This document shows positions 7,569-63,505 of a stretch of DNA of 64,000 nucleotides, one piece after another. The position numbers were made by a program, and so were the translations under genes. Position 1 is the stretch's first letter, and each line of letters starts with the position of its first letter. Below the pieces are notes generated by a model, which was given only the letters and a program-made list of their open reading frames with translations, did not search any database and was not told the origin of the DNA. Origin of the DNA: an uncultured Gemmatimonadales bacterium (lineage in GTDB: Bacteria > Gemmatimonadota > Gemmatimonadetes > Gemmatimonadales > GWC2-71-9); the NCBI GenBank assembly GCA_963841505.1, contig CAWJCZ010000001.1, positions 149,834 through 213,833 of the forward strand. The letters are read 5' to 3'.

Positions 7569-8188
7569 CCTGCATGGAGCTTCGAGAGCGGCTGGACGAC
7601 TATGCCCGCGATGCGCTTGTCCCGGACGAGGCGACCGCCCTGGAAGCGCACCTCTCCACCTGCGAAAGCTGTAGCGCGCTTCTTGAGTCGCTGGCTCCCA
7701 GACTCGAGGAAACCACCGCGCTTCCCCGTGCCATCCAACCGCCTGCTCGAGTGTGGGAGAAAGTGTCGGGCGAGATCGCGCCTCGACGGTTTGGCCGAGG
7801 GCACGTACGGATCCCCTCGTGGATGCTCGCGGCTGCCGCGGTGCTTCTCATTGCGCTCTCGGCGGGAGCCACCGCGCTCCTGCTGCGGCGACCGGTTGCC
7901 GTGGTTCCTGGCGCGTCCTCGGCAATGGGCTCACCGCTCGAGGCCCAGTACGCGTCGGCGAGCGCCGATCTCGCCGCCGAGCTGGCCAAAGCCAAGGGAC
8001 TGCTGGCTCCCGCCACGGTGGCGGTCATCGAACGAAACCTCCGGGTCATCGACAGCGCCCTCGCGGAGTCGCGCCGGGCGCTTCAGGCCGACCCGAGAAA
8101 CCGGGTGCTGGAACAGATGCTGGTGGCGGTGTGGCGCCAGAAGATCGACTACCTTCGCCGCGCCACCGCGCTCTCCCCCGCCTCGTGA
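7565..8188 (+). CDS. anti-sigma factor, zf-HC2 type, single TM
   Basis: 4-nt overlap with the sigma gene. H-x3-C-x2-C motif in ALEAHLSTCESCSALL. TM segment WMLAAAAVLLIALSAGATALLL. Confidence 0.75.
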   Translation: MTCMELRERLDDYARDALVPDEATALEAHLSTCESCSALLESLAPRLEETTALPRAIQPPARVWEKVSGEIAPRRFGRGHVRIPSWMLAAAAVLLIALSAGATALLLRRPVAVVPGASSAMGSPLEAQYASASADLAAELAKAKGLLAPATVAVIERNLRVIDSALAESRRALQADPRNRVLEQMLVAVWRQKIDYLRRATALSPAS

Positions 8189-13170: not shown

Positions 13171-14139
13171 ATGAGCCGCGAGCTCCGGCTCGGCCTGCTC
13201 CTGGTCGGTGCGGGCCTGGTCACCCTGATGATCTGGAAAGTGGGGCCCGCGACCATCTGGAACGGGGTCAGCGGATCATGGTGGGTGGCCCTGGCCCTGA
13301 TCCCGCTCTGGGCGACCGTGTATCTCCTCAATTCGATCGCCTGGCGCCAGCTCACCTCCGCCGGCGGCGCACCGATTCCGCTGCTGCACGCCCTGCGCAT
13401 GACGGTCATCGCCTTCGCGGTGAACTACTCGACCCCGCTCCTGAGCTTTGGCGGCGAACCGCTCAAGGTGATGGCGGCCACCCCGGCTCTGGGGCGCCGC
13501 CGGGCGGTGGGATCTATCGTCGCTTTCCGGCTGCTGCACTCCCTGGTCCACGTCGTCTGGTGGCTGGTCGCCCTGATCCCCGCGGCGCTGCTGCTTCCCA
13601 ACAGCCTGCTCGCGGATTCGACGATCCTGGTGACCGGCGCCGTGATGGTCGGTCTGATCCTCTTTTTTCTTTCCCGCCACCGGGAGGGGATGGCGCTCCA
13701 GTTGCTCCATCTGCTGAAGCGGATCCCTCTGCTCAAGCGGCTGGCCACCCGGCTCGAGCCCCAGGCCGAAGCGCTCCATGAGATCGATCAGCACGTCACC
13801 GAGATCTACAAGCGGGCCCCGGGACGATTTTACGTTGCCTTCGCCGCGGAGTCGGTGGCCCGGCTGCTGTCGCTGGCCGAGTACTGGGTCATTCTCTACG
13901 GGTTAGGGCTGGGGATGAATCCCTGGCGGGCGCTTGTGGTGGCGAGCTTCGCGTCCCTGGTTGTGAACGCACTGATCTTCGTGCCCTTCGAGATCGGGAC
14001 CCGGGAGGGTGGCTCCTATCTCATCTTCCACCTGCTCGGCATCGACCCTGCGCTGGGACTCGCTGCGGCGCTGCTCACCCGGATCCGGGAGCTTACCTGG
14101 ATCGTGATCGGCTGGGCGATGGTCTGGACGGTGAAGTAG
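13171..14139 (+). CDS. lysylphosphatidylglycerol-synthase-TM-like (UPF0104 / flippase-like) membrane protein
   Basis: 322-aa polytopic ORF. The N-terminus LLLVGAGLVTLMIWKVGP...IPLWATVYLLNSIAWRQL is typical of the family. Confidence 0.55.
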   Translation: MSRELRLGLLLVGAGLVTLMIWKVGPATIWNGVSGSWWVALALIPLWATVYLLNSIAWRQLTSAGGAPIPLLHALRMTVIAFAVNYSTPLLSFGGEPLKVMAATPALGRRRAVGSIVAFRLLHSLVHVVWWLVALIPAALLLPNSLLADSTILVTGAVMVGLILFFLSRHREGMALQLLHLLKRIPLLKRLATRLEPQAEALHEIDQHVTEIYKRAPGRFYVAFAAESVARLLSLAEYWVILYGLGLGMNPWRALVVASFASLVVNALIFVPFEIGTREGGSYLIFHLLGIDPALGLAAALLTRIRELTWIVIGWAMVWTVK

Positions 14140-18340: not shown

Positions 18341-21094
18341 CTAACGATTGATCCAGTAGTTGAGTTTCACCAGGAAGATGTTGTCCGCCTTCGCCGAGAA
18401 GAGGGCATCGACGTCACGGGAGAACTGGAGGTCCCCGACCCGGCTGGCAAAGTCGCTGCCGCTCCGGGTCCAGACCAGGAAGAGGGTCGAGCCGGGCCGG
18501 TACTCCCATCGGATCACCGCATTGCCCCGGAGCGATCGCAGGTTGAAATCAGGATTCGACACCACCATTTCGGGAGCAGGGCCGGTCCCGTCCGGATCGA
18601 TGTGATAGGTGTTGACTCGGCCGTTGGCGTCCAGGTCGGTGGTGACCGTCCCGATTCCTTCGCCGTAGACCACCACGTCGAGGCTCCGGGGGGCGGCGAT
18701 CTCCTTGAAGCGGCTGTAATGGGCGCTGGCGATAAACGGCTGGGCGTAGAGCTCGAAGCTCAGCGTCGGGGAGAATGTCAGGCTCATCCGGGTGTCGATA
18801 CTCGCGGTCTTCTGATCGATTCCTGCGAAGAGATAGCGGGAGCCATAGAAGGCCGTTGCGGTGGCATCGGTGAACCGGCTCACGTACTGCCGGTTGCTCC
18901 GGGAGTGATCGAAGTACGGCGAAAGAGACACCGAAAAGTTCGACGCGACCCGAACCTGCACCTGGGCAGAGATGCTCTTGTCGTCGTAGCCCTCGGAGCT
19001 GCGATAGTAGGAGGGGCTGAGGCTCAATCCGATCCGTTTGCGGCTGTCGGTGTTGACGCTCAGGGAGTAGTACATGCTGCCGGGGCGCTTGACCACCGGG
19101 CCGCCGCGGGTCAGCCGGTCATCGTAGACGCTGGGCCGGTGGATGACGAACGTGTTCACACTCCAGTAGTTCCGAAACGTGCCAAACAGTCCGCCATGAA
19201 CCTGGGTGTCGGTCCGGTCGCCGTCGAAATTCATGGCGGCCTGGGTGCCCGCCACGATGAAATAGTTCTGGTACCAGCGGGTCGGCTTGCTCAGGGACAG
19301 GGCGAGATTGGTGTTGCCCCACAGGTAGTCGGCCCGGGTATTGAACGCCACGTCATTAGCCTCGAAGCCCGGGGTCCGCCAGTTCACCGTGCTCTCGAAA
19401 AGAATCTTCCCGGCGTCCTTGGCGAACCGGGTGTATCCCCCTAACCCGCGTAGCCGGCTCAGGGTCGGGTCGTACCCGTTGGTCAGGAATCCGTTGCCGT
19501 GGCTCTCCCGGTCGGGGCGCTGGAAGTACCGGGCGCTCGAATTCTGGAGCCGGAGGATCGCGGCGGGGTCGCCCACGTTGTTGGTCAGGGCGAGGTTGCC
19601 CACCACCGAATAGGTACGATTCTTCCAGCGGGCGGCGTAATCGAACCCGACCGATTCGGAGTGCCGGTTGAGCCGCTGCACCAGCAGGGGATCCTCCAGC
19701 GAGCGGATCACCGAGGTGACCATCCCACCCACCACGAGGTTGCCGCCCCGCATGTCCTGCTTCATCCGGCCCACGAAATAGTTGGTGAGTGGCTCGACTT
19801 CCTGCTTGATCTCGTCGCCATCTACCAGCGCCGTGGCGCGCTCCCGGCCGGTCACCGCGTTGAGGAGGCCCAGGGTCGTTCCGCCCCGGGTCCGGCCGGT
19901 GACCTTGGCCGCGCCGAGGATAGAGGTCGCGTCCGGAATCGAGGAATAGGTCGCATCGGAGGGGAGCACCCCTTGGGGCGACCGGCCGATTCGCCGGCTG
20001 TAGAAGAGCGACAGCGACGACACGTTGCTGCAGAAGAAACAGCTGAAGCCGCCGAACCCGAAGGTCCCGCTGCCTTCGATGAAGAAAGGCCGCTTCTCCT
20101 GAAAAAATGTCTCGAACGCCGAGAGGTTCACCACCGCGGGATCCACTTCGACCTGGCCGAAGTCCGGATTGATGGTGGCGTCGAGCGTGATGTTCGAAGT
20201 CAGCAGGTACTTGAGGTCCGCGCCAAACCGGCCGTCCACCTTGCGCTGGTGATAATACGGGTCGCCGGGGTCGCCCGGCTGGAGCCGTTGATAGCGCGCC
20301 ACCGTGTAGGGCAGGAGCTCCAGGCGGCGGGCCGATGACTGGCCCGGCATCAGCTCGGTGATGTGGCCGAACCGGGAAGGCCCACCGGTTTCATCGGGCC
20401 CCCAGTAGGACCACATCGAGATCTCGTTGGTGCGCGCTTCGGTCCGCCAGACCTGCATCCCCCAGACCTGCACCGAATCCCGCGCAAAACGAAGTTGGGA
20501 GAACGGAATCCGGAACTCGGCGGTCCAACCCAGTGAATCGATCTGGGTTTTCACTTGCCAGACCGGGTCCCAGGATTCGTCGGCGTTTTCGGACGCCTGG
20601 CCGGCGTCACTCTTCACGCCCGAGGGATTGACCGAGAAAATGGTGCGCCCCAGATGGTTGTGGTACGTGTCGAAAATGAACTGAATCAGATCGCTGTTGG
20701 CCGCCTCGCCGTCGCGCCGGACCAGCTGACTCCGCACCCCCGCGGCTCCCTTCTCATCGAACATCCGGGCGCCGAGGTACAACGCATCGTCGTCAAAGAG
20801 AATCCGGATCTCGGTCCGCTGGGTCGCGGGATTTCCCGGGTTGGGCTGCGCTTGCCGGAAATCCGTGGCGATCTGGGCCTCTTTCCAGACCGCCTCGTCG
20901 AGCTTTCCATCCAGGATGATCGGAGTATCCCGTCGGAGCGCGCGAATCGAGGGCGACGGAATGGCGTGCATGGCGGCGGTGTGGGACTCGCGAGAGACTG
21001 AGCCCTCATTGCTTGCGGCCTGGGCGCCGAGCCGGACCGGGGCGGCGGCCGTCAGGAGGAGCATCCATTGGGGAAAGCGCTTCCGCATTGCCAC
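18341..21094 (-). CDS. CBM9-like + DUF5916 outer-membrane beta-barrel protein
   Basis: 917 aa with a signal peptide. IILDGKLDEAVWKEAQIATDFRQAQPNPGNPATQRTEIRILFDDDALYLGARMFD is the CBM9/DUF5916 N-terminal signature. The ORF is uninterrupted. Confidence 0.7.
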   Translation of the reverse strand: MAMRKRFPQWMLLLTAAAPVRLGAQAASNEGSVSRESHTAAMHAIPSPSIRALRRDTPIILDGKLDEAVWKEAQIATDFRQAQPNPGNPATQRTEIRILFDDDALYLGARMFDEKGAAGVRSQLVRRDGEAANSDLIQFIFDTYHNHLGRTIFSVNPSGVKSDAGQASENADESWDPVWQVKTQIDSLGWTAEFRIPFSQLRFARDSVQVWGMQVWRTEARTNEISMWSYWGPDETGGPSRFGHITELMPGQSSARRLELLPYTVARYQRLQPGDPGDPYYHQRKVDGRFGADLKYLLTSNITLDATINPDFGQVEVDPAVVNLSAFETFFQEKRPFFIEGSGTFGFGGFSCFFCSNVSSLSLFYSRRIGRSPQGVLPSDATYSSIPDATSILGAAKVTGRTRGGTTLGLLNAVTGRERATALVDGDEIKQEVEPLTNYFVGRMKQDMRGGNLVVGGMVTSVIRSLEDPLLVQRLNRHSESVGFDYAARWKNRTYSVVGNLALTNNVGDPAAILRLQNSSARYFQRPDRESHGNGFLTNGYDPTLSRLRGLGGYTRFAKDAGKILFESTVNWRTPGFEANDVAFNTRADYLWGNTNLALSLSKPTRWYQNYFIVAGTQAAMNFDGDRTDTQVHGGLFGTFRNYWSVNTFVIHRPSVYDDRLTRGGPVVKRPGSMYYSLSVNTDSRKRIGLSLSPSYYRSSEGYDDKSISAQVQVRVASNFSVSLSPYFDHSRSNRQYVSRFTDATATAFYGSRYLFAGIDQKTASIDTRMSLTFSPTLSFELYAQPFIASAHYSRFKEIAAPRSLDVVVYGEGIGTVTTDLDANGRVNTYHIDPDGTGPAPEMVVSNPDFNLRSLRGNAVIRWEYRPGSTLFLVWTRSGSDFASRVGDLQFSRDVDALFSAKADNIFLVKLNYWINR

Positions 21095-21301: not shown

Positions 21302-21334
21302 TATAGGCTGTCTGCGTTTACGGGATTGGAAACC

Positions 21335-21901
21335 ATGGGAATCATTGCGAGCGACATCCGCCGGGGCATGGCGATCATTTTCAACGGGGAGCCTTGCCGG
21401 GTCCTCGAGTTCCACCACCACACGCCGGGGAATCTCCGGGCCATGGTGCAGGCCAAGCTGCGTCGCCTCAAGACCGGGACCCAGATCGAGCACCGGTTCC
21501 GCTCGACCGATACCGTGGACGTGGCGGATCTGGAAACCCACGAGCTCGACTTCATGTACCGGGCCGGGACGACCTACCACTTCATGAACGCCGACAACTT
21601 CGACCAGCTCGAGATCGACGAGGAAACGCTGGGCGATGCCGCCAAGTGGATGGCCGAGGGCATGCGGATTCTGGCGGAGTGGTACGAAGGGCGACCCATC
21701 GGGATTCAGCTTCCGTCCGCCCTCACGCTCGAGGTGGCGGACACCACCCCGGTCATGAAGACCGCGACCAAGACCGCCTCCAGCAAGCCCGCCACCCTCA
21801 GCAATGGCGTCACCATCAACGTGCCTGAATTCATCCAGCCCGGCGAGCGGGTACGGGTGAATCCGACCACGGGCGAGTACATCGACCGCGCCAAGGAATA
21901 A
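21335..21901 (+). CDS. efp: translation elongation factor P
   Basis: Full-length similarity to EF-P (FNGEPCRVLEF...AKLRRLKTG...YHFMNADNFDQLEI...KPATLSNGVTINVPEFIQPGERVRVNPTTGEYIDRA). ATG 21335 is preferred to the track TTG at 21326. Confidence 0.9.
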   Translation: MGIIASDIRRGMAIIFNGEPCRVLEFHHHTPGNLRAMVQAKLRRLKTGTQIEHRFRSTDTVDVADLETHELDFMYRAGTTYHFMNADNFDQLEIDEETLGDAAKWMAEGMRILAEWYEGRPIGIQLPSALTLEVADTTPVMKTATKTASSKPATLSNGVTINVPEFIQPGERVRVNPTTGEYIDRAKE

Positions 21902-21970
21902 GGGTCAGACTCCTTTTCCTGGTCCGCGATGGAATGATTCGCGGCGCGGAAAAAACGGTCCCCTTCTTTA

Positions 21971-22201
21971 GTGGCATTGGACCGAATCTGGAGGAATGGC
22001 GAGGCTGCCCGCTATTTCCTTCCTGGAATTCCCCAACACGTCATCCAGCGCGGGAATAACCGCTCGGCCCTGTTCACCGCGTCGGATGACTACCGATTTT
22101 GCCGGTTTCTTCATGGAATTTCGGGCCTTCAAGCAAACTGCAGCTTCCGCTCTCTCTGGGTTCGGTCGCCCACTAAGATCGTCAACAGTAGACGCGAATG
22201 A
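21971..22201 (+). mobile_element. truncated REP-associated tyrosine transposase / IS200-like TnpA (COG1943) stub
   Basis: YFLPGIPQHVIQRGNNRSALFTASDDYRF matches the conserved N-terminus (PG.P.H.IQRGNNRQ..F..DEDY) of RAYT-type transposases. The catalytic remainder is missing. Confidence 0.5.
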
Positions 22202-22333
22202 GCGTGGGAACAGGGATGGAACCGATCAGCGCCTAGCTACTGCGAGTTTGGCCGACCGCCGATTGATCCTTCCCTGGTCCAGTTACCTCGACGACGCCCC
22301 CGGCCATCCGGATCGACTGGTCACGCGGCACGC

Positions 22334-22393
22334 TATAAGATGTTATAGTCGCGCGTCACGACTACAAGATGTTATAGTCCGACCTAACCCGCC
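22334..22393. repeat. REP-like element: 14-bp direct repeat AAGATGTTATAGTC (22337-22350, 22366-22379) flanking hairpin TAGTCG-cgcgtca-CGACTA, followed by CCTAACCCG
   Basis: Read directly from the sequence. The minus strand contains GTAG next to the palindrome, as in REP heads. It lies 130 nt downstream of the transposase stub. Confidence 0.55.
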
Positions 22394-22513
22394 TCAATAA
22401 TTGCTTGCGTACTAACCGGATTTTTTGTACCTTCGTGTGGAAGGCCTTGTCCGTTTGCTGCATACCGGTTTCCTGTGGGCGCACCTAACGCCGCAGCAGA
22501 GGGAGGAGAGCGA

Positions 22514-23860
22514 ATGTCTCTCTTCAGACGATCCAAGCCGGCATTGGGCCATCTGTTCATAATTGCCGTGGTGGCCGCCTGTACTGAAAGCACTATCGGC
22601 CCACGTAGGCTTCCATTTACTACTCTTCCACTATTCTCGGTCCATTCCATCTCTGATGACCAATGGCCATTTTCTCTCAGTCCTTCAAACAGCAATGACA
22701 CTGTTGGCCCCTACACCATCACCACTCTACCCCGGTGGACTCTCCTAGAGCTGATCGTGTCCGGATCTGAGGAGGCTACGTACGAGTATGGGCCTCATAT
22801 CGGGGAGGCGACTGGGTTCACTTAGGGACCAGGTGGTGAGCCAACTCTCAGCGGTTGTTCTGGAGCGAATATCGCCATCACCTTCACCACAGGAGGTGGC
22901 TACACGTGGTGTGGGAACGACACAACGTCCAGTGTCGTCTCAATCGCCAAGGGGACGGGGGTAGTCTTTTGGAATCCGGGGCCTGGGGACGTACACATAC
23001 CCGAGTGCGGTCGCCCTCCATATAGTCCGTGTTACTCGATAAGCGGGACTTTCGATGTAACTGTTAAGAAACCTGCCACAACGCTTTCTTTAACTCCGGA
23101 TGCAATCTCGACCACGGCCGGAGCAGAACTAACCTGGTATCTCACCCTGACACCCTACAGCTACCACGGAGTAGCATTTCCGTTTCAGATCCAGGATTAC
23201 TGGAAGTACTACGCTGACTCTGGAGGAACGTATTCTGTTTGCCTTTTCTACGACAGTTGTTCCTATTCTCCAACGAAGACTGGAACGATCAAGGTCCCTG
23301 TGTTTGTCCAGGGAGACAGCGTCATGATGTTTGGCAAAGTCTACGTGTTCCCATGCCTGATTGGAGACTCCTTGCTTGACGACCCGATCATCCGACAGGG
23401 CCTTCGTGATGCATGGGCTGGCTCCAACCCTGATGGGAATGCCAATGACCGTACTGAGAGATACGGTGGCAAGGCTTGCACGAACGGAGTGTGTTCTCCA
23501 GTGTTGGGACCTATCGGGGCCAACGACAACGCTTGCAGGAATTTCCCGAGCGATCCGTCTGGAAGTTGGACAGTCACCTGGCATACCCACCCGTTCATGC
23601 CAGGTGATACCCTAGACCCACTACCATCGGATTCTACGAAGTGCGCTTGGCCAAGGGACACGAATGGGAATCCTTTTCAACCGCCGAGTCCCCGTAAGTC
23701 AGCTCCAAGGCCCTCACGTGAAGATCGGGTGACCAATTCCTGGCTTCCAAGAATCGTGATAGACAAGCAGAACGTCTACTTCTTACCCGCCAATGATACC
23801 CTTACGGTCAAGACCTTCGACAGGAACACTTGCGACCCGCTTGCCGGTGCTATCTATTAA
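22514..23860 (+). CDS. lipoprotein with Cys-rich middle region and tentative JAB/MPN-like C-terminal motif, interrupted by one in-frame TAG (22823-22825)
   Basis: GGAGG plus ATG 22514. Lipobox IIAVVAAC. Frame 2 is open from 22514 to 23860 except for the TAG (hand-translated). The C-terminus has ERYGG...WHTHP...PSREDRV. Track ORFs 22475..22825 and 23300..23860 are in the same frame. Confidence 0.55.
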
Positions 23861-23900
23861 ATGCGATGGTGGGAGGGTCATCCCAGCCTTGGAGTTCAAG

Positions 23901-24302
23901 ATGCGATACTCGACACTTCTAGTATTCGTCGTACTCAGTGGGGTTTCGACAGCTGCTCGTAGTCAGTCGAGTTGCTTGAACGACGGTGGAGTGGGCCTCC
24001 AACTCATTGCACTCAAGCAGATGGTTGCCTCCAATGATTCACTAACATTGGCCAAGCTGTCGATCATTAAAGTTGACAGCTCACAGGTTGTGGCGGTATC
24101 GACCGACTCGGTCTGCTCGCCTGCTGTCTCGTCCTTCCGCTCCAAACTCGGACTCTCAACTAGTCCGACAACAGCCTATGTATTCCAGGTCGGAGCCAGT
24201 CGTTTGGTAGTGCTGCATCCCTCCATCGGATCGGGCGAGTTTCGAACCCACGTTGTAATGCGAGCATCGGATTACGTGGTTCTTGACGTCTTTGAAGGCT
24301 AG
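23901..24302 (+). CDS. small secreted hypothetical protein
   Basis: ATG 23901. Signal peptide MRYSTLLVFVVLSGVSTAARSQ. 133 aa, low GC, no recognisable family. Confidence 0.5.
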   Translation: MRYSTLLVFVVLSGVSTAARSQSSCLNDGGVGLQLIALKQMVASNDSLTLAKLSIIKVDSSQVVAVSTDSVCSPAVSSFRSKLGLSTSPTTAYVFQVGASRLVVLHPSIGSGEFRTHVVMRASDYVVLDVFEG

Positions 24303-24329: not shown

Positions 24330-25448
24330 TCAGACCCGCAGTACGAGACCCCGTCGCTCCATAACCCGCAGTATCCCGTACCACAGCGCCACAAACCCGA
24401 TCGCATAACCGAGCGAGGCGACTCGTGGCGGCAGCCACGACGCGAATGCGGCGTGGTAGATCCCCTGTTGCAGCGACGTCGTGCCGTCGGCCGAGGGCAG
24501 CCGGATCATGCCGAGGACCCGGGCCATCGCCCCGGAGCCAATGAACGCGGTGAGCGGGTTGAGCCCATAGGTCACCAGCGGCGCGGCCCAGCGATTCTTT
24601 CCCTTGACGTCCATGATCCAGGAAATCACCCCGAGGATTACTGCGGCCATCCCGGCGGTGAAGACCACGTAGGAGCTGGTCCACAGGTTCTTGTTGATGG
24701 GGAGGGCCCAGTTCCATACCAGGCCCGCCATCATTCCAATCGCTCCGGCCGAAAACAGGCCGTTCAGCCGTTCGGCCAGCGGAAGGGGCCGGGTCAGCCA
24801 GCGCCCGGTGAGGAGACCGAGGAGACAGGTGCCAATCGCCGGCAGGGTCGAGAGGAGACCTTCGGGGTCCCAGGTCCGGGATTCCTTCCAGAGGTGGGTG
24901 CCGAAGATGCTACGGTCGATCCAGGCCGACAGGGTCTCGCCCGGAACATCGATCGTGGGATGGACAACCCCGGGCGGCGCAATGAGGGTCTGAAGGCCCC
25001 AGTAGCCGAACAGGAGCACGACGACGATCAGGGTGATCCGACGCCAGGAGCTGCCCCGGGCCAGGAATGCGGTGGCCAGATAACACAGGCCGATCCGCTG
25101 GAGCACGCCGGGGAAGCGAACTTCGGTGATTCGGGTCAGGGGAAACCACGGGAAGGACTGAAGCATCAAACCAAGGAAGATGATGAGCAGTCCACGCTTC
25201 AGAATCCGGAGCCGGACCGAGGCAGGTGCAATTCCCCTCCGCTCGGCACTCTCCAGCGAGAGGTGGCTGGTGATGCCCACGATGAATACAAAGAACGGGA
25301 AGATGAGATCGGTCGGGGTCCAGCCGTGCCAGGGTGCGTGCTCGAGCGGCGGGAAGATCGCGCTCCAGGTCCCGGGATTGTTGACCAGCAGCATCCCCGC
25401 GATAGTCAGGCCGCGGAATGCGTCCAGGGCGGCGAGGCGCTCCCGCAT
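24330..25448 (-). CDS. acyltransferase, heparan-alpha-glucosaminide N-acetyltransferase-like (DUF1624/DUF5009)
   Basis: GGAGGA plus ATG 25448. RLAALDAFRGLTIAGMLLVNNPG...PLEHAPWHGWTPTDLIFPFFVFIVG is the family signature. The track ORF extends spuriously to 26159. Confidence 0.75.
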   Translation of the reverse strand: MRERLAALDAFRGLTIAGMLLVNNPGTWSAIFPPLEHAPWHGWTPTDLIFPFFVFIVGITSHLSLESAERRGIAPASVRLRILKRGLLIIFLGLMLQSFPWFPLTRITEVRFPGVLQRIGLCYLATAFLARGSSWRRITLIVVVLLFGYWGLQTLIAPPGVVHPTIDVPGETLSAWIDRSIFGTHLWKESRTWDPEGLLSTLPAIGTCLLGLLTGRWLTRPLPLAERLNGLFSAGAIGMMAGLVWNWALPINKNLWTSSYVVFTAGMAAVILGVISWIMDVKGKNRWAAPLVTYGLNPLTAFIGSGAMARVLGMIRLPSADGTTSLQQGIYHAAFASWLPPRVASLGYAIGFVALWYGILRVMERRGLVLRV

Positions 25449-25521
25449 GATTCCTCCGACGAGGTATCTTCCGAATGAGTCTCCCAAGATACCGTCGTTC
25501 AGCAGGTTGTGATTCAGTATC

Positions 25522-27831
25522 GTGCAAAACGCTCTAGACGCCCTGCTCGCCTTTCTCTTCAAGTTCCCCCCGCACTTGTTCAAGCGCGGGGTTCTGGCTC
25601 TGGCCCCGGACCTGCCGATCCCGCTTCTGATCGGAGCGATCGGAATCGGACTGGCGGTGATTCTCTTCGCCTTGCGGGGACTCCGAACCTCCGCCCCAGG
25701 ACGCGATCGCCTGGTTCTGGGCGCGATCCGGCTCGCGGTCGTGCTGCTCCTCGCCGGCTGCCTGATGCGACCGGTGCTTCTGCTTTCCAGCTCGGTTCCC
25801 CAGCGTAACATCCTCGCCGTACTGCTCGACGATTCGCGCAGCATGCAGCTTCGTGACGTGAACGGCGCGCCCCGGCTCGATGCGGTCAGGGCCGCCTTCG
25901 GCGATTCGGCGGCCCTGGTGCGACGGCTGGGCGAACGATTCGTGCTTCGATTCTTCCGTTTCGGGGCCGATGCCGGTGCGATCACCGGAACCACGGCACT
26001 CAAAGGCAACGGAACCAGAACGGATCTCGCGGGTGCGCTCCAGGCGGCCCAGGATGAGCTGGCGGGCGCTCCGCTCGCCGGTCTGGTCCTGGTGACCGAT
26101 GGCGCCGACAACGCCGGCGCCGACCTCACCGCGCCCCTCCTCTCGCTACGGGCCCGCAAGGTCCCGGTCTACAGCGTCGGGGTCGGGCAGGAGCGATTCG
26201 AGAAGGATGCCGGGATCGAGCGGGTTTCTCTGCCGGCGAGCGCCCTGACCGGCGCCGGGGTGATGAGCGAGGTCGCGATCCGGGTGCGGGGCTTGAGCGG
26301 CCAGGAACTCGCGGTGGTGGCAGAAGACGATGGCCGGGTAGTCGCCGAGCGCACGGTGCCGATTGGCAAGGAGGACGTGGCACGGGTTCAGCTTCGGCTC
26401 CCCCAGCTCGCACCCGGGTCGCATCCGCTCACCTTCAAGATCCGGCCGATCCCGGGAGAAATCGTCACCGAGAACAACGAGTATCGCAGCGTGCTGCGGG
26501 TCCGGCCCGGGCCCGAAAAGATTCTCTACGTCGAAGGTGAGCCTCGTCCCGAGCTGGCATTCATCCGCCGGGCGGTCTCGGGAGACAGCGCGCTGCAGCT
26601 GGTGGCGATGCTGCGGAGCGCCAAGGGCAAGTATCTCCGGCTCGGCGTGGACGACAGCCTCGAGCTGGCGAGCGGCTTTCCGACCCGGCGCGAGGATCTG
26701 TTCCGTTACCGGGCGATCGTCCTGGGGAGCATCGAAGCGTCGTTCTTCACCGGCGATCAGCTCCGGATGATGGCCGACTTCGTGAGTCGCCGGGGGGGCG
26801 GCCTCGTGGTCCTGGGCGGCCGATCGGCGCTCGCCGAGGGCGGCTACGCCGATACTCCGCTCGAGGACGTGTTGCCGGCGGGGCTCCGGCGCCCGGCCAA
26901 TGAGGAAACCGACCCGGTCGCCATCGAGCTGACCCCCCGACTCACCCCGGCGGGCAAGGTCCATCCGATTCTTCAGCTCGGCGCGACCGAAGCGGCCGCG
27001 GCGCGGTGGGATTCGATGCCGGCGCTGACCTCGGTTAACCCGCTCGGGCCCATCAAGCCGGGCGCGACGGTGCTCCTCAACGGGAAACCTGCAGGGACCA
27101 CCAACAACACCGGAGCCGGCCAGCCGCTGCTGGTGGTGCAGCGGGTGGGGCGGGGCACCGTGGCCCTGCTCGACGTCCAGGACACCTGGCTCTGGCGGAT
27201 GGACGCGCGGATTCCGGTGGAGGACCGGACCCACGCGACGTTCTGGCGTCAGCTGCTCCGCTGGTCGCTGGACGGGGTGCCTGAGCGGCTCGAAGTCGCA
27301 TCCGCACCGACCCGGGTGGGTCCCGGGGAGCCGGCGACCATACGGGCCCGCCTGGTGGACCAGAGTTATCTCGACGCCAATGACGGCAACGTGATCGCGA
27401 GGGTGGTGGCACCGGGGGGAGATACCATCGAAGTGCCGCTGACCTGGACCATGCGGGGCGATGGGATCTACGAGGGCCGCTACGTGGCTACCGATCCGGG
27501 GGTCTATCGGGTCGAGGCGGAAGCCCGGCGGAACGATGAGCCGGGCCTGATCCGCGCGGATCCGGCCGCCCTTCTGGTCGATGACTTCGGGGCCGATGTC
27601 GAGCAGCCCGAGCTCCGGACCCAGCTACTCGAGCGGATCGCCGGGGAAACCGGAGGCCGCTACTACCCGCTGCGCGAGGCAGCCCGACTCTCCGAGGACG
27701 TCGGGTACACCGAGAGCGGAGTTACAGTGCGGGAATCCCATGACCTGTGGGACATGCCGATCGTGTTTCTCCTTCTGGTGGGCCTCCTTGGGACCGAATG
27801 GGCCTATCGCCGCCGCCGGGGACTCGCGTGA
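25522..27831 (+). CDS. membrane-anchored vWA domain protein with C-terminal GATase1-like region (first gene of the MoxR/Bat-like operon)
   Basis: N-terminal TM segments. MIDAS LLDDSRSM...VTDGADN. Later ...ILYVEGEPRPELAFIRRA...VLGGRSALAEGGYADTPLEDVLP, with a C-terminal TM. Confidence 0.65.
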   Translation: MQNALDALLAFLFKFPPHLFKRGVLALAPDLPIPLLIGAIGIGLAVILFALRGLRTSAPGRDRLVLGAIRLAVVLLLAGCLMRPVLLLSSSVPQRNILAVLLDDSRSMQLRDVNGAPRLDAVRAAFGDSAALVRRLGERFVLRFFRFGADAGAITGTTALKGNGTRTDLAGALQAAQDELAGAPLAGLVLVTDGADNAGADLTAPLLSLRARKVPVYSVGVGQERFEKDAGIERVSLPASALTGAGVMSEVAIRVRGLSGQELAVVAEDDGRVVAERTVPIGKEDVARVQLRLPQLAPGSHPLTFKIRPIPGEIVTENNEYRSVLRVRPGPEKILYVEGEPRPELAFIRRAVSGDSALQLVAMLRSAKGKYLRLGVDDSLELASGFPTRREDLFRYRAIVLGSIEASFFTGDQLRMMADFVSRRGGGLVVLGGRSALAEGGYADTPLEDVLPAGLRRPANEETDPVAIELTPRLTPAGKVHPILQLGATEAAAARWDSMPALTSVNPLGPIKPGATVLLNGKPAGTTNNTGAGQPLLVVQRVGRGTVALLDVQDTWLWRMDARIPVEDRTHATFWRQLLRWSLDGVPERLEVASAPTRVGPGEPATIRARLVDQSYLDANDGNVIARVVAPGGDTIEVPLTWTMRGDGIYEGRYVATDPGVYRVEAEARRNDEPGLIRADPAALLVDDFGADVEQPELRTQLLERIAGETGGRYYPLREAARLSEDVGYTESGVTVRESHDLWDMPIVFLLLVGLLGTEWAYRRRRGLA

Positions 27832-60105: not shown

Positions 60106-62285
60106 GCGCCCCGAAGCAGGTCAGCCGGCGGGAGTTTCTCACCGTCACGGCCATTGCGGGCGGCGGGTTGCTCCTGGGCACGCGGGTTACGCGGGCCGCG
60201 AACCCCACCGGCTCGACCGCGGCGGAATTCCTGCCCAATCCGTTCATCCGGATTACCCCGGACGGCGCCGTCACTCTGATCGCGCAGAATCCGGAAATCG
60301 GCCAGGGCATCAAGACCATGCTGCCGATGATTATCGCCGATGAGCTCGATGTGGACTGGAAAGACGTGAGCATCGAGCAGGCCGGACTGGACACCGACCG
60401 CTTCCAGCAACAGTTCGCCGGTGGAAGTACTGCGACGCCGAACCACTGGACCCGGATGCGGAGGGTCGGTGCCGCCGGCCGGGCGATGCTGGTCACCGCC
60501 GCCGCGGAGATCTGGCAGGTTCCCGAATCCGAATGCGAAACCGCCTCGGGAGCCGTCACGCACAAACGGAGCGGCCGCAGTCTCAAATACGGAGCCCTGC
60601 TGCCGAAGGCCGCGACCGTCGCGCCGCCCGCGCTCGAATCGGTGACCCTCAAGGATCCCCGGCAGTTCCGGATCATCGGCCAGCGGATCCATGGGGTGGA
60701 CAACCACGCGATTGTGACGGGAACCCCGTTGTACGGAATCGACGTCAAGGTTCCCGGGATGCTCTACGCGGTGTATGAAAAATGTCCCGTCTTCGGCGGC
60801 ACCGTCAGCAGCGCGAACCTGGAAGAGATCCGGGCCAGACCGGGGATCCGGCAGGCGTTCGTGGTCGAGCCGGGAGCGGGTGGCGCGCTGAACGGGTTGC
60901 TGGGGGGTGTGGCCATTATCGGCGATACCTGGTGGGTCGCCAAGCATGCGCGCGATGGACTCAAGGTGACCTGGAACGAAGGCGAGACGGCGGCCCAGAG
61001 CAGCGCAGGCTTTGCCGCCCAGGCCGCCCAGCTGAGCCGAAGCGCTCCGCAACGGAATCTCCGCAAGGATGGTGACGCCGAAGTGGCGTTGGCCGGGGCT
61101 GCCCGGAAAGTACGGGCAGAATACTTCTATCCGTTCATCGCCCACGCACCGCTCGAGCCGATGAACTGCACCGCGAGCTACCAGGATGGAAAGCTCGAGA
61201 TCTGGGCTCCGAGCCAGACCCCTGCGGGGGGCCGGGCCCTGGTGTCGCGCACCCTGAACATTCCGGAATCCGACATCACGATCCACCTGACCCGCAGTGG
61301 CGGCGGGTTCGGACGGCGGCTCAACAACGATTACATGGTCGAAGCCGCGGCGATCGCGAAACAGGCCGGGGTTCCCGTGAAGCTCTTGTGGACCCGGGAA
61401 GACGACATGCGCCATGATTTCTACCGGCCGGCAGGGTTCCACTACCTGGCCGGCGGGGTCGATTCAGCCGGGAAACTGGTCGCGTGGCACAACCACTTCG
61501 TTTCCTTCGGCGAGGGCGAGCGATTTGCCCCGGCCGCCGGCCTCGGCGCGACCGAATTCCCCCAGCGTTTCATTGCCAATTATCAGCTGGACGCATCGGT
61601 GATGCCGCTTGGCGTTCCCACCGGGGCATTGCGAGCGCCGACCAGCAACGGCGTGGCGTTCGTGATCCAGTCATTCCTGGATGAGCTGGCCCATGCGGCG
61701 GGGAAAGATCCGGTCGCCTTCCGGCTCGACTTGCTCTCCAACGCACCCGAGGGCGAGGGTTTCAATGCCCAGCGGATGGGTGCAGTGCTCGCGCTGGTCG
61801 CCGAGAAGTCGGGTTGGAGCGCGCGGAGGAAGGAGCGGGGCAAGGGGATGGGGGTGGCTTTCCACTACAGCCACCGCGGTCACTTCGCCGAGGTGGTGCA
61901 GGTGAGCGTGACCCGAGCCGGGGCCCTGACGATCGAGAAGGTCTTCGTGGCGGGCGATATCGGCAGTCACGTCATCAATCCGCTCAACGCGGAGAACCAG
62001 GTCCAGGGAGCGGTGCTCGACGGACTGGCGGAAGCGCTGGGGCAGCAGATCACCATCGAAAAAGGCCGGGCGGTCCAGAGCAACTTCCACGACTTTCCCC
62101 TGCTTCGGCTGACCCAGGCGGTCCCGATCGAGGTGTTCTGGAGCCAGCCCGACTTCCCGCCCACCGGGTTAGGGGAGCCGGCGCTTCCCCCGGTCATCCC
62201 CGCGCTCTGTAATGCGATATTCGAGGCGACCGGGAAACGGATCCGGTCCCTGCCGATCGGCAAGCAGGACCTGAGCTGGACATAA
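60102..62285 (+). CDS. molybdopterin-binding large subunit (IorB-like), Tat-exported
   Basis: GTG 60102 in a GTGA overlap. Tat motif [19 protein letters not shown]. Full-length aldehyde oxidase/xanthine dehydrogenase-family similarity. The track ORF start at 59709 is an out-of-context extension. Confidence 0.85.
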
Positions 62286-62322
62286 CAGGCGGACAGGCGG
62301 GCAGGCGGACAGGCGGACAATC
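62283..62322 (+). repeat. tandem octamer array (TAACAGGC GGACAGGC GGGCAGGC GGACAGGC GGACAATC)
   Basis: Read directly from the sequence. It is intergenic, starts at the TAA stop of the IorB-like gene and ends 14 nt before the next ATG. Confidence 0.75.
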
Positions 62323-62335
62323 GAAAGGGGCGATC

Positions 62336-63505
62336 ATGAGTACCATGTTTCCAGTGAGCCGGCGGCGATTCTTCGGTGGAGTGGCCACGGCGGTCGGGGC
62401 CTTGACCATCCGGCCCGAGCTCGCGCTCTGGTCGCAGGGCACCCCGGCCCAGCAGCGGCCGCGGACCTCGGTCGACGAGTACGACGCGTTGGCCAAGCTC
62501 GCCAACAACGAGAACCCGTACGGGCCGCCCGAATCGGTGCTCAAGGCGATGACCGACGCATTCAAATACGCCAATCGCTATGGCTATCCGGATGGCGGCA
62601 TCACCGACGCGATCGCCAAACATCACGGGGTGGAGCCGGAGAACGTCATGCTCGGCGCCGGCTCGGGCGAGATTCTCGACATTGCCTGCATCGCGCTGCT
62701 GCGTGACGACAAGAAGGTGGTCGGGGTGGATCCGTCGTACGATATCCTCTATCAGCACGCCAGAACGCTCAAGGCGGACCAGATCCGTCTCCCCTTGCTC
62801 AAGGATTACACCCAGGACATTCCCGCCATGATCAAGGCGGTCAAGCAGAACTATCGCGATGTGGGATTCGTGTACCTGGTGAATCCCAACAACCCGACCG
62901 GCCGCACCGTCTCCCGGAAAGATGTGGCACTACTCCTCGATTCGATTCCCGAGGACGTTCCCGTCCTGATCGACGAGGCCTATCACCATTTCGTGGAAGA
63001 TCCCGAGTACGCCACCTCGGTGCCCTACGTGCTTCAGGGGCGCAACGTGATCGTGGCGCGCACCTTCTCGAAGATCGCGGCGCTCGCCGGCATGCGGCTG
63101 GGCTACGCCATTGCGCCGCGGAGCCTGCTCCAGCAGATGCGTCCGTTCAGCACCGGCAGCATCAACGCGGTGGTGAAGTGGGGCGGGGTGGCCGCGCTCC
63201 AGGATACCGCGGCGCAGGCCTGGGTGAAGAAGGTCACCATCGACGAACGGGAGAAGGCGACCCGCCAGCTCAATGCGATGGGGTTCGAGACGATTCCTTC
63301 CCAGTGCAATTTCTTCATGGTGAACCTCAAGCGGCCGGTCCAATCGGTGACCGAGGAATTCCGCAAGCGGAAAGTACTGGTGGGACGGCCCTTCCCGCCG
63401 CTGGTTGAGCACCTCCGGGTCTCGATCGGGACGCCGGATGAAATGGGGCGATTCATGGTCGCCTTCCGCGAGATCTTCGCGAACGGGAAGGCGGCGGGGG
63501 GGTAG
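62336..63505 (+). CDS. class I/II PLP-dependent aminotransferase (HisC-like) with Tat signal
   Basis: SRRRFFGGVATAVGALT twin-arginine leader. LANNENPYGPP, NPNNPTG and TFSKIAALAGMRLGY (PLP lysine context). Confidence 0.8.
   Translation: MSTMFPVSRRRFFGGVATAVGALTIRPELALWSQGTPAQQRPRTSVDEYDALAKLANNENPYGPPESVLKAMTDAFKYANRYGYPDGGITDAIAKHHGVEPENVMLGAGSGEILDIACIALLRDDKKVVGVDPSYDILYQHARTLKADQIRLPLLKDYTQDIPAMIKAVKQNYRDVGFVYLVNPNNPTGRTVSRKDVALLLDSIPEDVPVLIDEAYHHFVEDPEYATSVPYVLQGRNVIVARTFSKIAALAGMRLGYAIAPRSLLQQMRPFSTGSINAVVKWGGVAALQDTAAQAWVKKVTIDEREKATRQLNAMGFETIPSQCNFFMVNLKRPVQSVTEEFRKRKVLVGRPFPPLVEHLRVSIGTPDEMGRFMVAFREIFANGKAAGG

Follow-up and report, generated by a model that had tools for sequence, protein, structure and literature searches.

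The 64,000-nucleotide stretch of DNA analysed here (the window), which derives from an uncultured Gemmatimonadales bacterium (GenBank assembly GCA_963841505.1, contig CAWJCZ010000001.1, positions 149,834 to 213,833), contains at positions 22514-23860 of its forward strand a long reading frame that begins as a lipoprotein gene, ends in a region with residues in the order typical of JAB-type enzymes and is interrupted once, by an in-frame amber codon. Whether this interval represents one gene or two, whether its internal stop is a genuine mutation, and what the interrupted product would have done are the questions that the locus raises. Taken as a whole, it is best explained, and in our judgement with good probability, as a nonsense-inactivated gene for a lipid-anchored JAB-like hydrolase, located in a cassette with the gene of a secreted partner protein.

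Translation of all six frames confirmed that frame 2 is open from the ATG at 22514-22516 to the natural stop codon, a TAA read directly from the nucleotides at 23858-23860, but for a single TAG at 22823-22825 (codon 104, in the context EATGFT-stop-GPGGEPTLSGC), and that the list of open reading frames cuts it in two, 22475..22825 and 23300..23860, as the initial annotation had noted. The five remaining frames of the interval contain 12-24 stops each; given the base composition of the interval itself, 448 codons should contain 17.5 stops, and the probability of encountering at most one is approximately 5e-7. The ATG is preceded at a distance of 7 nucleotides by a strong Shine-Dalgarno sequence, GGAGG (22502..22506, plus strand). 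The interval is genuine coding sequence with one lesion, and the first in-frame start codon downstream of the TAG lies at 23300, 158 codons further on.

A homology search among 5.8 billion proteins with the read-through translation as query identified three relatives, P0001 (455 amino acids), P0002 (447 amino acids) and P0003 (424 amino acids), which display 37-40% identity and cover 64-97% of the read-through protein. A profile of the window copy and these three sequences, run against 1.84 billion cluster representatives, retrieved 503 proteins at E<=1e-3, of which 61 passed E<=1e-30, with a typical size of about 450 amino acids; homologues of 400-468 amino acids span 91-97% of the read-through protein. 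A second search, with a 150-sequence profile, returned five proteins and was uninformative, a scan of genome contigs found no relative (the window's own genome was likewise not retrieved) and a metagenome scan led to the P0001 locus only. In a codon-level alignment, the column of the TAG is occupied in the three aligned relatives by sense codons, namely TAC (Tyr), CTT (Leu) and ATC (Ile), and among the relatives examined none ends at this position or has a start codon close by. With P0001 as query, tblastn yielded one colinear high-scoring segment pair (22550-23854, E=2e-77) that spans the TAG, so that neither a frameshift nor a second lesion is present. The stop is premature with respect to intact colinear orthologues and has no restart behind it, as in a nonsense pseudogene.

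These comparisons also bear on the possibility of two true genes, a short N-terminal lipoprotein encoded by 22514-22825 and a separate C-terminal protein starting at 23300. In its favour, a gene caller entered the 186-amino-acid product of 23300..23860 in a public protein collection (P0005); this entry originates from the window's own contig and is a mis-called fragment. However, a split at this point occurs in no full-length relative that was examined, the 158 conserved coding codons between the TAG and 23300 would stay untranslated, and the 186-amino-acid product would be devoid of a signal peptide yet would contain four conserved cysteines, which are typical of an exported domain. A restart at 23300 would thus entail the loss of both conserved sequence and the signal peptide, and the two-gene reading was rejected as scarcely credible. 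Judging from the alignments, the interval is a single gene broken by the TAG, as had been proposed in the initial annotation; the arrangement named there as contradicting this proposal, orthologues that stop at the same TAG and possess a downstream start, was not seen among the relatives examined.

For this single gene, recent nonsense inactivation is the most likely reading and the account that we consider probable, a true mutation being clearly favoured over a base-call error. The substitution at codon 104 would plausibly have converted a tyrosine codon (TAC or TAT) to TAG, since the relatives carry TAC, CTT or ATC at this position, and the inactivation would be recent because the near-invariant positions of the family downstream of the TAG have all been kept, save two tolerated substitutions. 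The same conservation, together with the absence of a second lesion, would also be expected if the organism had an intact, functional gene and the TAG had arisen by an error of base calling or assembly. One base change suffices for such an error, TAC being the codon of the closest relative at this position, and the sequence comes from a long assembled contig (534,890 bp); on sequence alone, a substitution error in the assembly would be indistinguishable from a mutation, which counts against our account. On the other hand, substitution errors are rare in polished assemblies, the gene resides in a decaying-looking foreign island beside an apparent truncated transposase fragment, and the loss of a large gene with retention of its small partner is a familiar pattern in toxin-like cassettes. 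An error is considered unlikely, although by no means negligible, and the TAG is presumably a real mutation.

In a further explanation, a full-length protein would be made despite the TAG, either through programmed read-through, which the initial annotation also contemplated, or with the help of a suppressor tRNA or pyrrolysine. The fully preserved frame downstream of the TAG would be compatible with it, but TAG is the terminator of several ordinary window genes (for instance 18341..21094, 13171..14139 and 62213..63505) with a high G+C content at third codon positions (GC3), the relatives inspected have no in-frame stop at this position, and no tRNA gene or Rfam element was found in the 64-kb window. 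Moreover, the aligned residue varies (Tyr, Leu or Ile), so that no special residue is needed at codon 104. Given the use of TAG to end genuine window genes and the variable sense codons in the relatives, recoding found no support and was rejected as highly improbable.

The product of the uninterrupted gene would be a modular exported protein. Codons 1-103 (22514..22822, plus strand) encode a lipoprotein signal peptide and the start of a conserved beta-rich N-terminal region. As assessed by motif, the N-terminus of the window copy, MSLFRRSKPALGHLFIIAVVAA-C, is a classical lipoprotein signal: the n-region is positively charged, the core is hydrophobic, and a VAAC lipobox (pattern [LVI][ASTVI][GAS]C) ends in Cys23 (22580-22582). 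Among 151 relatives, 61-68 begin with a lipobox-like sequence, the others often being fragments or having mis-called starts, and P0003 and P0004 gain the lipoboxes VSGC and LQAC, respectively, when read from upstream starts. Both the Shine-Dalgarno sequence and the VVAAC lipobox cited in the initial annotation are present, and its assignment of the protein as a lipoprotein is borne out by the n- and h-regions, the VAAC motif and the lipoboxes of the relatives.

The rest of the beta-rich region (22826..23080, plus strand) was modelled with low confidence and is given no fold. It is followed by a PKD/Ig-like beta-sandwich domain (23081..23350, plus strand; residues 86-175 of model md71c7272ae56, with a predicted local distance difference test score, pLDDT, above 90), which has Ig-like matches in the PDB and corresponds to Pfam PKD in 33 of 117 relatives. 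The AlphaFold2 model calculated with a 150-sequence alignment (residues 105-448, pLDDT 84) comprises this confident Ig-like sandwich and, after it, an alpha/beta head. Scans of the window proteins against Pfam, NCBIfam and PADLOC gave no match, the window copy has no Pfam match at E<=1, and the family as a whole, with at least 503 sequence clusters, is represented by no Pfam or NCBIfam model. Since a Foldseek search with the three-part model was swamped by Ig-like matches and returned nothing on the head, the latter was modelled alone.

The head, a C-terminal JAB-like domain of 173 amino acids (23339..23857, plus strand), was delimited by the alignment, the head model, and structural and Pfam matches. 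In a 132-sequence alignment, nine positions are nearly invariant (read-through numbering): Cys281, Glu315, Cys341, His357, His359, Cys377, Ser401, Asp404 and Cys440. The full Glu/His/His/Ser/Asp set is found in 115 of the 132 aligned domains; in the window its codons are located at 23456-23458 (Glu315), 23582-23590 (His357-x-His359), 23714-23716 (Ser401) and 23723-23725 (Asp404). The residue between the two histidines is Thr in the window copy and Thr, Met, Val, Gly or Ser, among others, across the family. The head is probably disulfide-bonded, and its four nearly invariant cysteines possibly form two disulfides. In the model of the isolated head (pLDDT 92.8), the HxH motif closes a beta-strand and the SxxD motif opens a helix; the two motifs occupy equivalent positions in the JAMM topology.

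Structural and profile comparisons point in the same direction. The top PDB matches of the head model in Foldseek are AMSH, Sst2, AMSH-LP, Rpn11 and BubCD, along with cytidine deaminases, whose fold is of the same class. Among predicted viral structures (BFVD), the matches are stronger, the best having an E-value of 2.4e-4 and a probability of 1.0, and include a 'Deubiquitination hydrolase' and protein p25 of Xanthomonas phage Xop411, whose own sequence matches nearly the whole Pfam DUF4329 model (E=8e-5). When the family consensus was compared with 24,736 Pfam models, DUF4329 and Prok-JAB were the only matches; individually, three family members match DUF4329 (best E=7e-4, over the stretch from Glu to HxH) and two match Prok-JAB, all below threshold. 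The consensus scores 13.2 bits against Prok-JAB (cut-off 25) and 19.2 bits with the insertion between HxH and Ser excised, an exploratory manipulation upon which the match extends through SxxD (E=1e-3). A PDB profile search aligned the HTHP motif of the head with that of AMSH (E=0.57).

Several of these results weigh against a JAB assignment. The canonical spacing H-x-H-x(7)-S-x(2)-D does not hold in this family, in which an insertion separates HxH from Ser by 21-49 residues (median 33; 41 in the window), compared with 7 in JAMM enzymes. The PDB matches in Foldseek are weak (E>=0.1, TM-scores of 0.3-0.38), the best member reaches 19.9 bits against a DUF4329 gathering score of 28.6, with no member attaining the cut-off of either DUF4329 or Prok-JAB, and alignment of the family with the single p25 sequence by hhalign is also weak (E=0.13), although the Glu, the conserved Cys and HTH are aligned. 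The sub-threshold sequence matches, the low TM-scores and the non-canonical spacing would all be accommodated if the domain were unrelated to JAB and E..HxH..SxxD formed a metal or active site on another fold. Such an alternative is rather improbable, since independent weak signals converge on one clan: DUF4329 and Prok-JAB are the sole Pfam matches, JAMM or DUF4329 proteins head the structural neighbours in both the PDB and BFVD, and the strands and helices flanking the motifs succeed one another as in the JAMM topology.

A JAB-like fold is thus considered likely for the head. As the scores are below threshold and all members have 21-49 residues between HxH and Ser, the domain is better described as having a JAB-like fold with probable JAB chemistry than as a member of DUF4329 or Prok-JAB as now defined. 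The ERYGG, WHTHP and PSRED motifs and the 41-residue gap that had prompted a JAB/DUF4329-type call in the initial annotation are all present. This call is supported as regards the predicted JAB-like fold and the conserved Glu/His/His/Ser/Asp residues and fails as regards DUF4329 membership; the caution then expressed over the spacing was well founded, the gap being a family-wide trait, and the profile searches and structure prediction proposed at the time point to the JAB clan, albeit with sequence matches that all remain sub-threshold.

The broken gene is followed by an intact one (23901..24302, plus strand), which encodes a secreted protein of 133 amino acids with a signal peptide and two conserved cysteines, Cys25 and Cys72. 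Homologues of this partner, of 134-148 amino acids, are encoded 25-55 nucleotides downstream of the large gene or overlap it by 4 nucleotides, and the pairing is seen in every JAB-headed locus fetched, amounting to at least nine distinct loci (those of P0001, P0002, P0003, P0004, P0012 and P0152, two tandem pairs in locus L010 and one pair in L013). In L010 (287-4420) the pair is tandemly duplicated, the first pair overlapping by 4 nucleotides; in L013 (2-2505) the pair is accompanied by an orphan copy of the small gene that has no adjacent large gene; and in L004 the partner bears a lipobox, LSAC. We infer that the partner is an inhibitor or immunity factor of the large protein. A point that speaks against this role is that searches of Pfam and the PDB with the partner returned nothing at E<=10 and that no similarity to any immunity family was detected.

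The carrier is not restricted to JAB-like heads. In P0014, P0034, P0093, P0097, P0110, P0112, P0121 and P0147, the N-terminal carrier and PKD domain are shared and the C-terminal heads are different. The heads of P0014, P0034, P0093, P0147, P0112, P0121 and P0097 have no match in Pfam, but by eye metallohydrolase-like motifs can be discerned in several of them (QHEAFG..NGHEARA, HEQVH and SPHKYGVAVD..HVHFD, the last resembling LAS/M15 peptidases). At the one alternative-headed locus examined, that of P0110, the small gene is missing, and the flanks hold a resolvase and an IS3-type transposase. In the P0001 locus the neighbours are Rep_1, reverse transcriptase-trypsin-like fusion and KAP NTPase genes and, within the same region (L001, 5000-16500), a divergent protein of 352 amino acids carrying a HEMGHALG zincin motif; the region looks like a mobile or defence island. 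Polymorphic toxin-immunity cassettes offer an analogy, being likewise modular, paired, present in tandem or orphan copies and set in mobile surroundings. Such a reading, with its putative toxicity and immunity, is regarded as speculative.

In the window, the cassette is contained in a compositionally foreign island (21900-24300) with a G+C content of approximately 53%, compared with 62-70% in the flanks; the GC3 is 0.56 in both the large gene and its partner, compared with 0.82-0.88 in neighbouring genes. The island is bordered by efp (21326-21901) and by a convergent membrane-protein gene (24330-26159, minus strand), and consists of a transposase-like remnant, a repeat pair, the broken gene and the partner gene. 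The remnant is a short open reading frame (21971-22201) at the left edge, directly after efp, whose product includes RYFLPGIPQHVIQRGNNRSALFTASDDYRFCRFL; it resembles the N-terminus of a Y1 (IS200/RAYT-type) transposase, is degenerate thereafter, and has no Pfam or NCBIfam match.

The repeat, CTAyAAGATGTTATAGTC, occurs twice (22333-22350 and 22362-22379, 29 nucleotides apart), 135-180 nucleotides upstream of the ATG, and each copy holds a CTATAA-N4-TTATAG palindrome; no copy is expected by chance (0 in 100 shuffles). Upstream of the orthologue in the P0001 locus there is a comparable tandem pair, inverted in orientation (L001, about 7769-7815), and the 18-bp repeat was not seen at L004 or L007; being common only to the window and the P0001 locus, it is not a general feature of the family. 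The pair is possibly an operator for some regulator. Another upstream motif, ATTTGAGG-N3-TGGTTGAG, is common to L001 (7900-7960) and L007 (300-345), where it precedes the starts of two distant orthologues by 40-230 nucleotides; no copy was noticed ahead of the gene in the window. Scans of the region for promoters, terminators, tRNAs and Rfam elements added no information.

Taken together, these features suggest how the system might operate. The intact protein would be exported via the Sec/Lol route and lipid-anchored at Cys23, and would display, from the anchor outwards, the beta-rich region, the PKD/Ig-like spacer and a disulfide-stabilized, highly divergent JAB-fold head. In this putative active site, Glu315, His357, His359 and Asp404 would hold a catalytic metal and Ser401 would assist, as in JAMM enzymes. 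The protein would be a hydrolase acting outside the cytoplasm, its putative target being an amide or isopeptide bond of the cell envelope, and the co-encoded secreted partner may hold this metallohydrolase in check. In the genome studied here, the large gene would be dead at codon 104, and the partner gene is still intact.

Several known systems share part of this layout. JAMM/MPN+ isopeptidases (AMSH, AMSH-LP, Sst2 and Rpn11; Pfam JAB and Prok-JAB) have the same order of catalytic residues, with HxH at a strand end and SxxD at a helix start, and provide the best structural matches in the PDB as well as the profile alignment of the AMSH HTHP motif; the TM-scores are nevertheless low and the spacing differs, and JAMM enzymes work on ubiquitin-like tails within the cytoplasm, whereas the head described here is exported, probably disulfide-bonded and devoid of a ubiquitin-like context. 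Lipoprotein polymorphic toxins delivered between cells, such as the myxobacterial SitA/SitI system, are similarly anchored through a lipobox, exchange their C-terminal heads and have a small gene next to them; tandem and orphan copies occur in the present family. SitA heads are nucleases and the SitI immunity proteins are cytoplasmic, whereas the partner found here is secreted.

A further likeness is to Tox-JAB-2, a domain of polymorphic toxins with the signature E, H[ST]H, S, D that has been equated with DUF4329 (PF14220) and of which versions occur in Xanthomonas phages (Zhang et al., 2012, PMC3482391). The signature is present in the window copy (as HTH), the predicted fold is probably of the deaminase/JAB-like alpha+beta type, the domain is likewise C-terminal in a modular exported protein with a small partner gene next to it, and the structural neighbour Xop411 p25 is of the DUF4329 type. 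Several differences set the family apart: the Cys-bearing insertion of 21-49 residues between HxH and Ser, where the gap in p25 is short; the four conserved cysteines; scores under the Pfam gathering threshold; a carrier formed by a lipoprotein signal and PKD rather than by RHS, PAAR, type VI or type VII secretion system modules, with no RHS or PAAR match to Pfam in 117 family members; and a secreted partner that bears no detectable similarity to Imm-NTF2-2.

Tox-JAB-1, which has an NxxxE motif and is found on RHS repeats, is paired in Bacteroidetes with Imm65, which carries both a signal peptide and a lipobox (Zhang et al., 2012, PMC3482391), and thus sets a precedent for a JAB head with an exported immunity partner, the lipobox-bearing partner in L004 being a further point of resemblance. 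No similarity to Tox-JAB-1 or Imm65 models was found among the Pfam matches of the present family. According to Zhang et al. (2012, PMC3482391), prokaryotic JAB domains were known as intracellular enzymes, and the activity of toxin-type JAB domains had only been predicted. In the literature searched, neither later experimental work on Tox-JAB domains nor biochemistry for the family was found, which also tempers the functional reading.

The unnamed family may be regarded as a modestly novel variant of the JAB superfamily. In a bolder interpretation, to which we assign a rather low probability, it would constitute an undescribed class of lipoprotein-anchored, envelope-acting polymorphic effectors, in which a disulfide-bonded, Tox-JAB-2-like isopeptidase head acts in the periplasm or at the cell surface, for instance on peptidoglycan or lipoprotein isopeptide links, and is neutralized by a dedicated secreted immunity protein. 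If this were true, the window would show a classic end state, in which the toxin has been lost by nonsense mutation and the immunity gene has been kept.

The amber codon itself is a commonplace case of gene decay, unless it is an assembly error, and its importance is chiefly for annotation, which should record one pseudogene rather than two 'hypothetical proteins' of 116 and 186 amino acids. The broader interest lies in the family, in which the catalytic signature of JAB-type enzymes is found on an exported protein that is lipid-anchored, probably disulfide-bonded and always accompanied by a secreted partner in the JAB-headed loci examined, and which would merit its own family model and one experiment. 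An envelope JAB enzyme and its candidate inhibitor would offer a tractable system in which to learn what divergent JAB domains cut.
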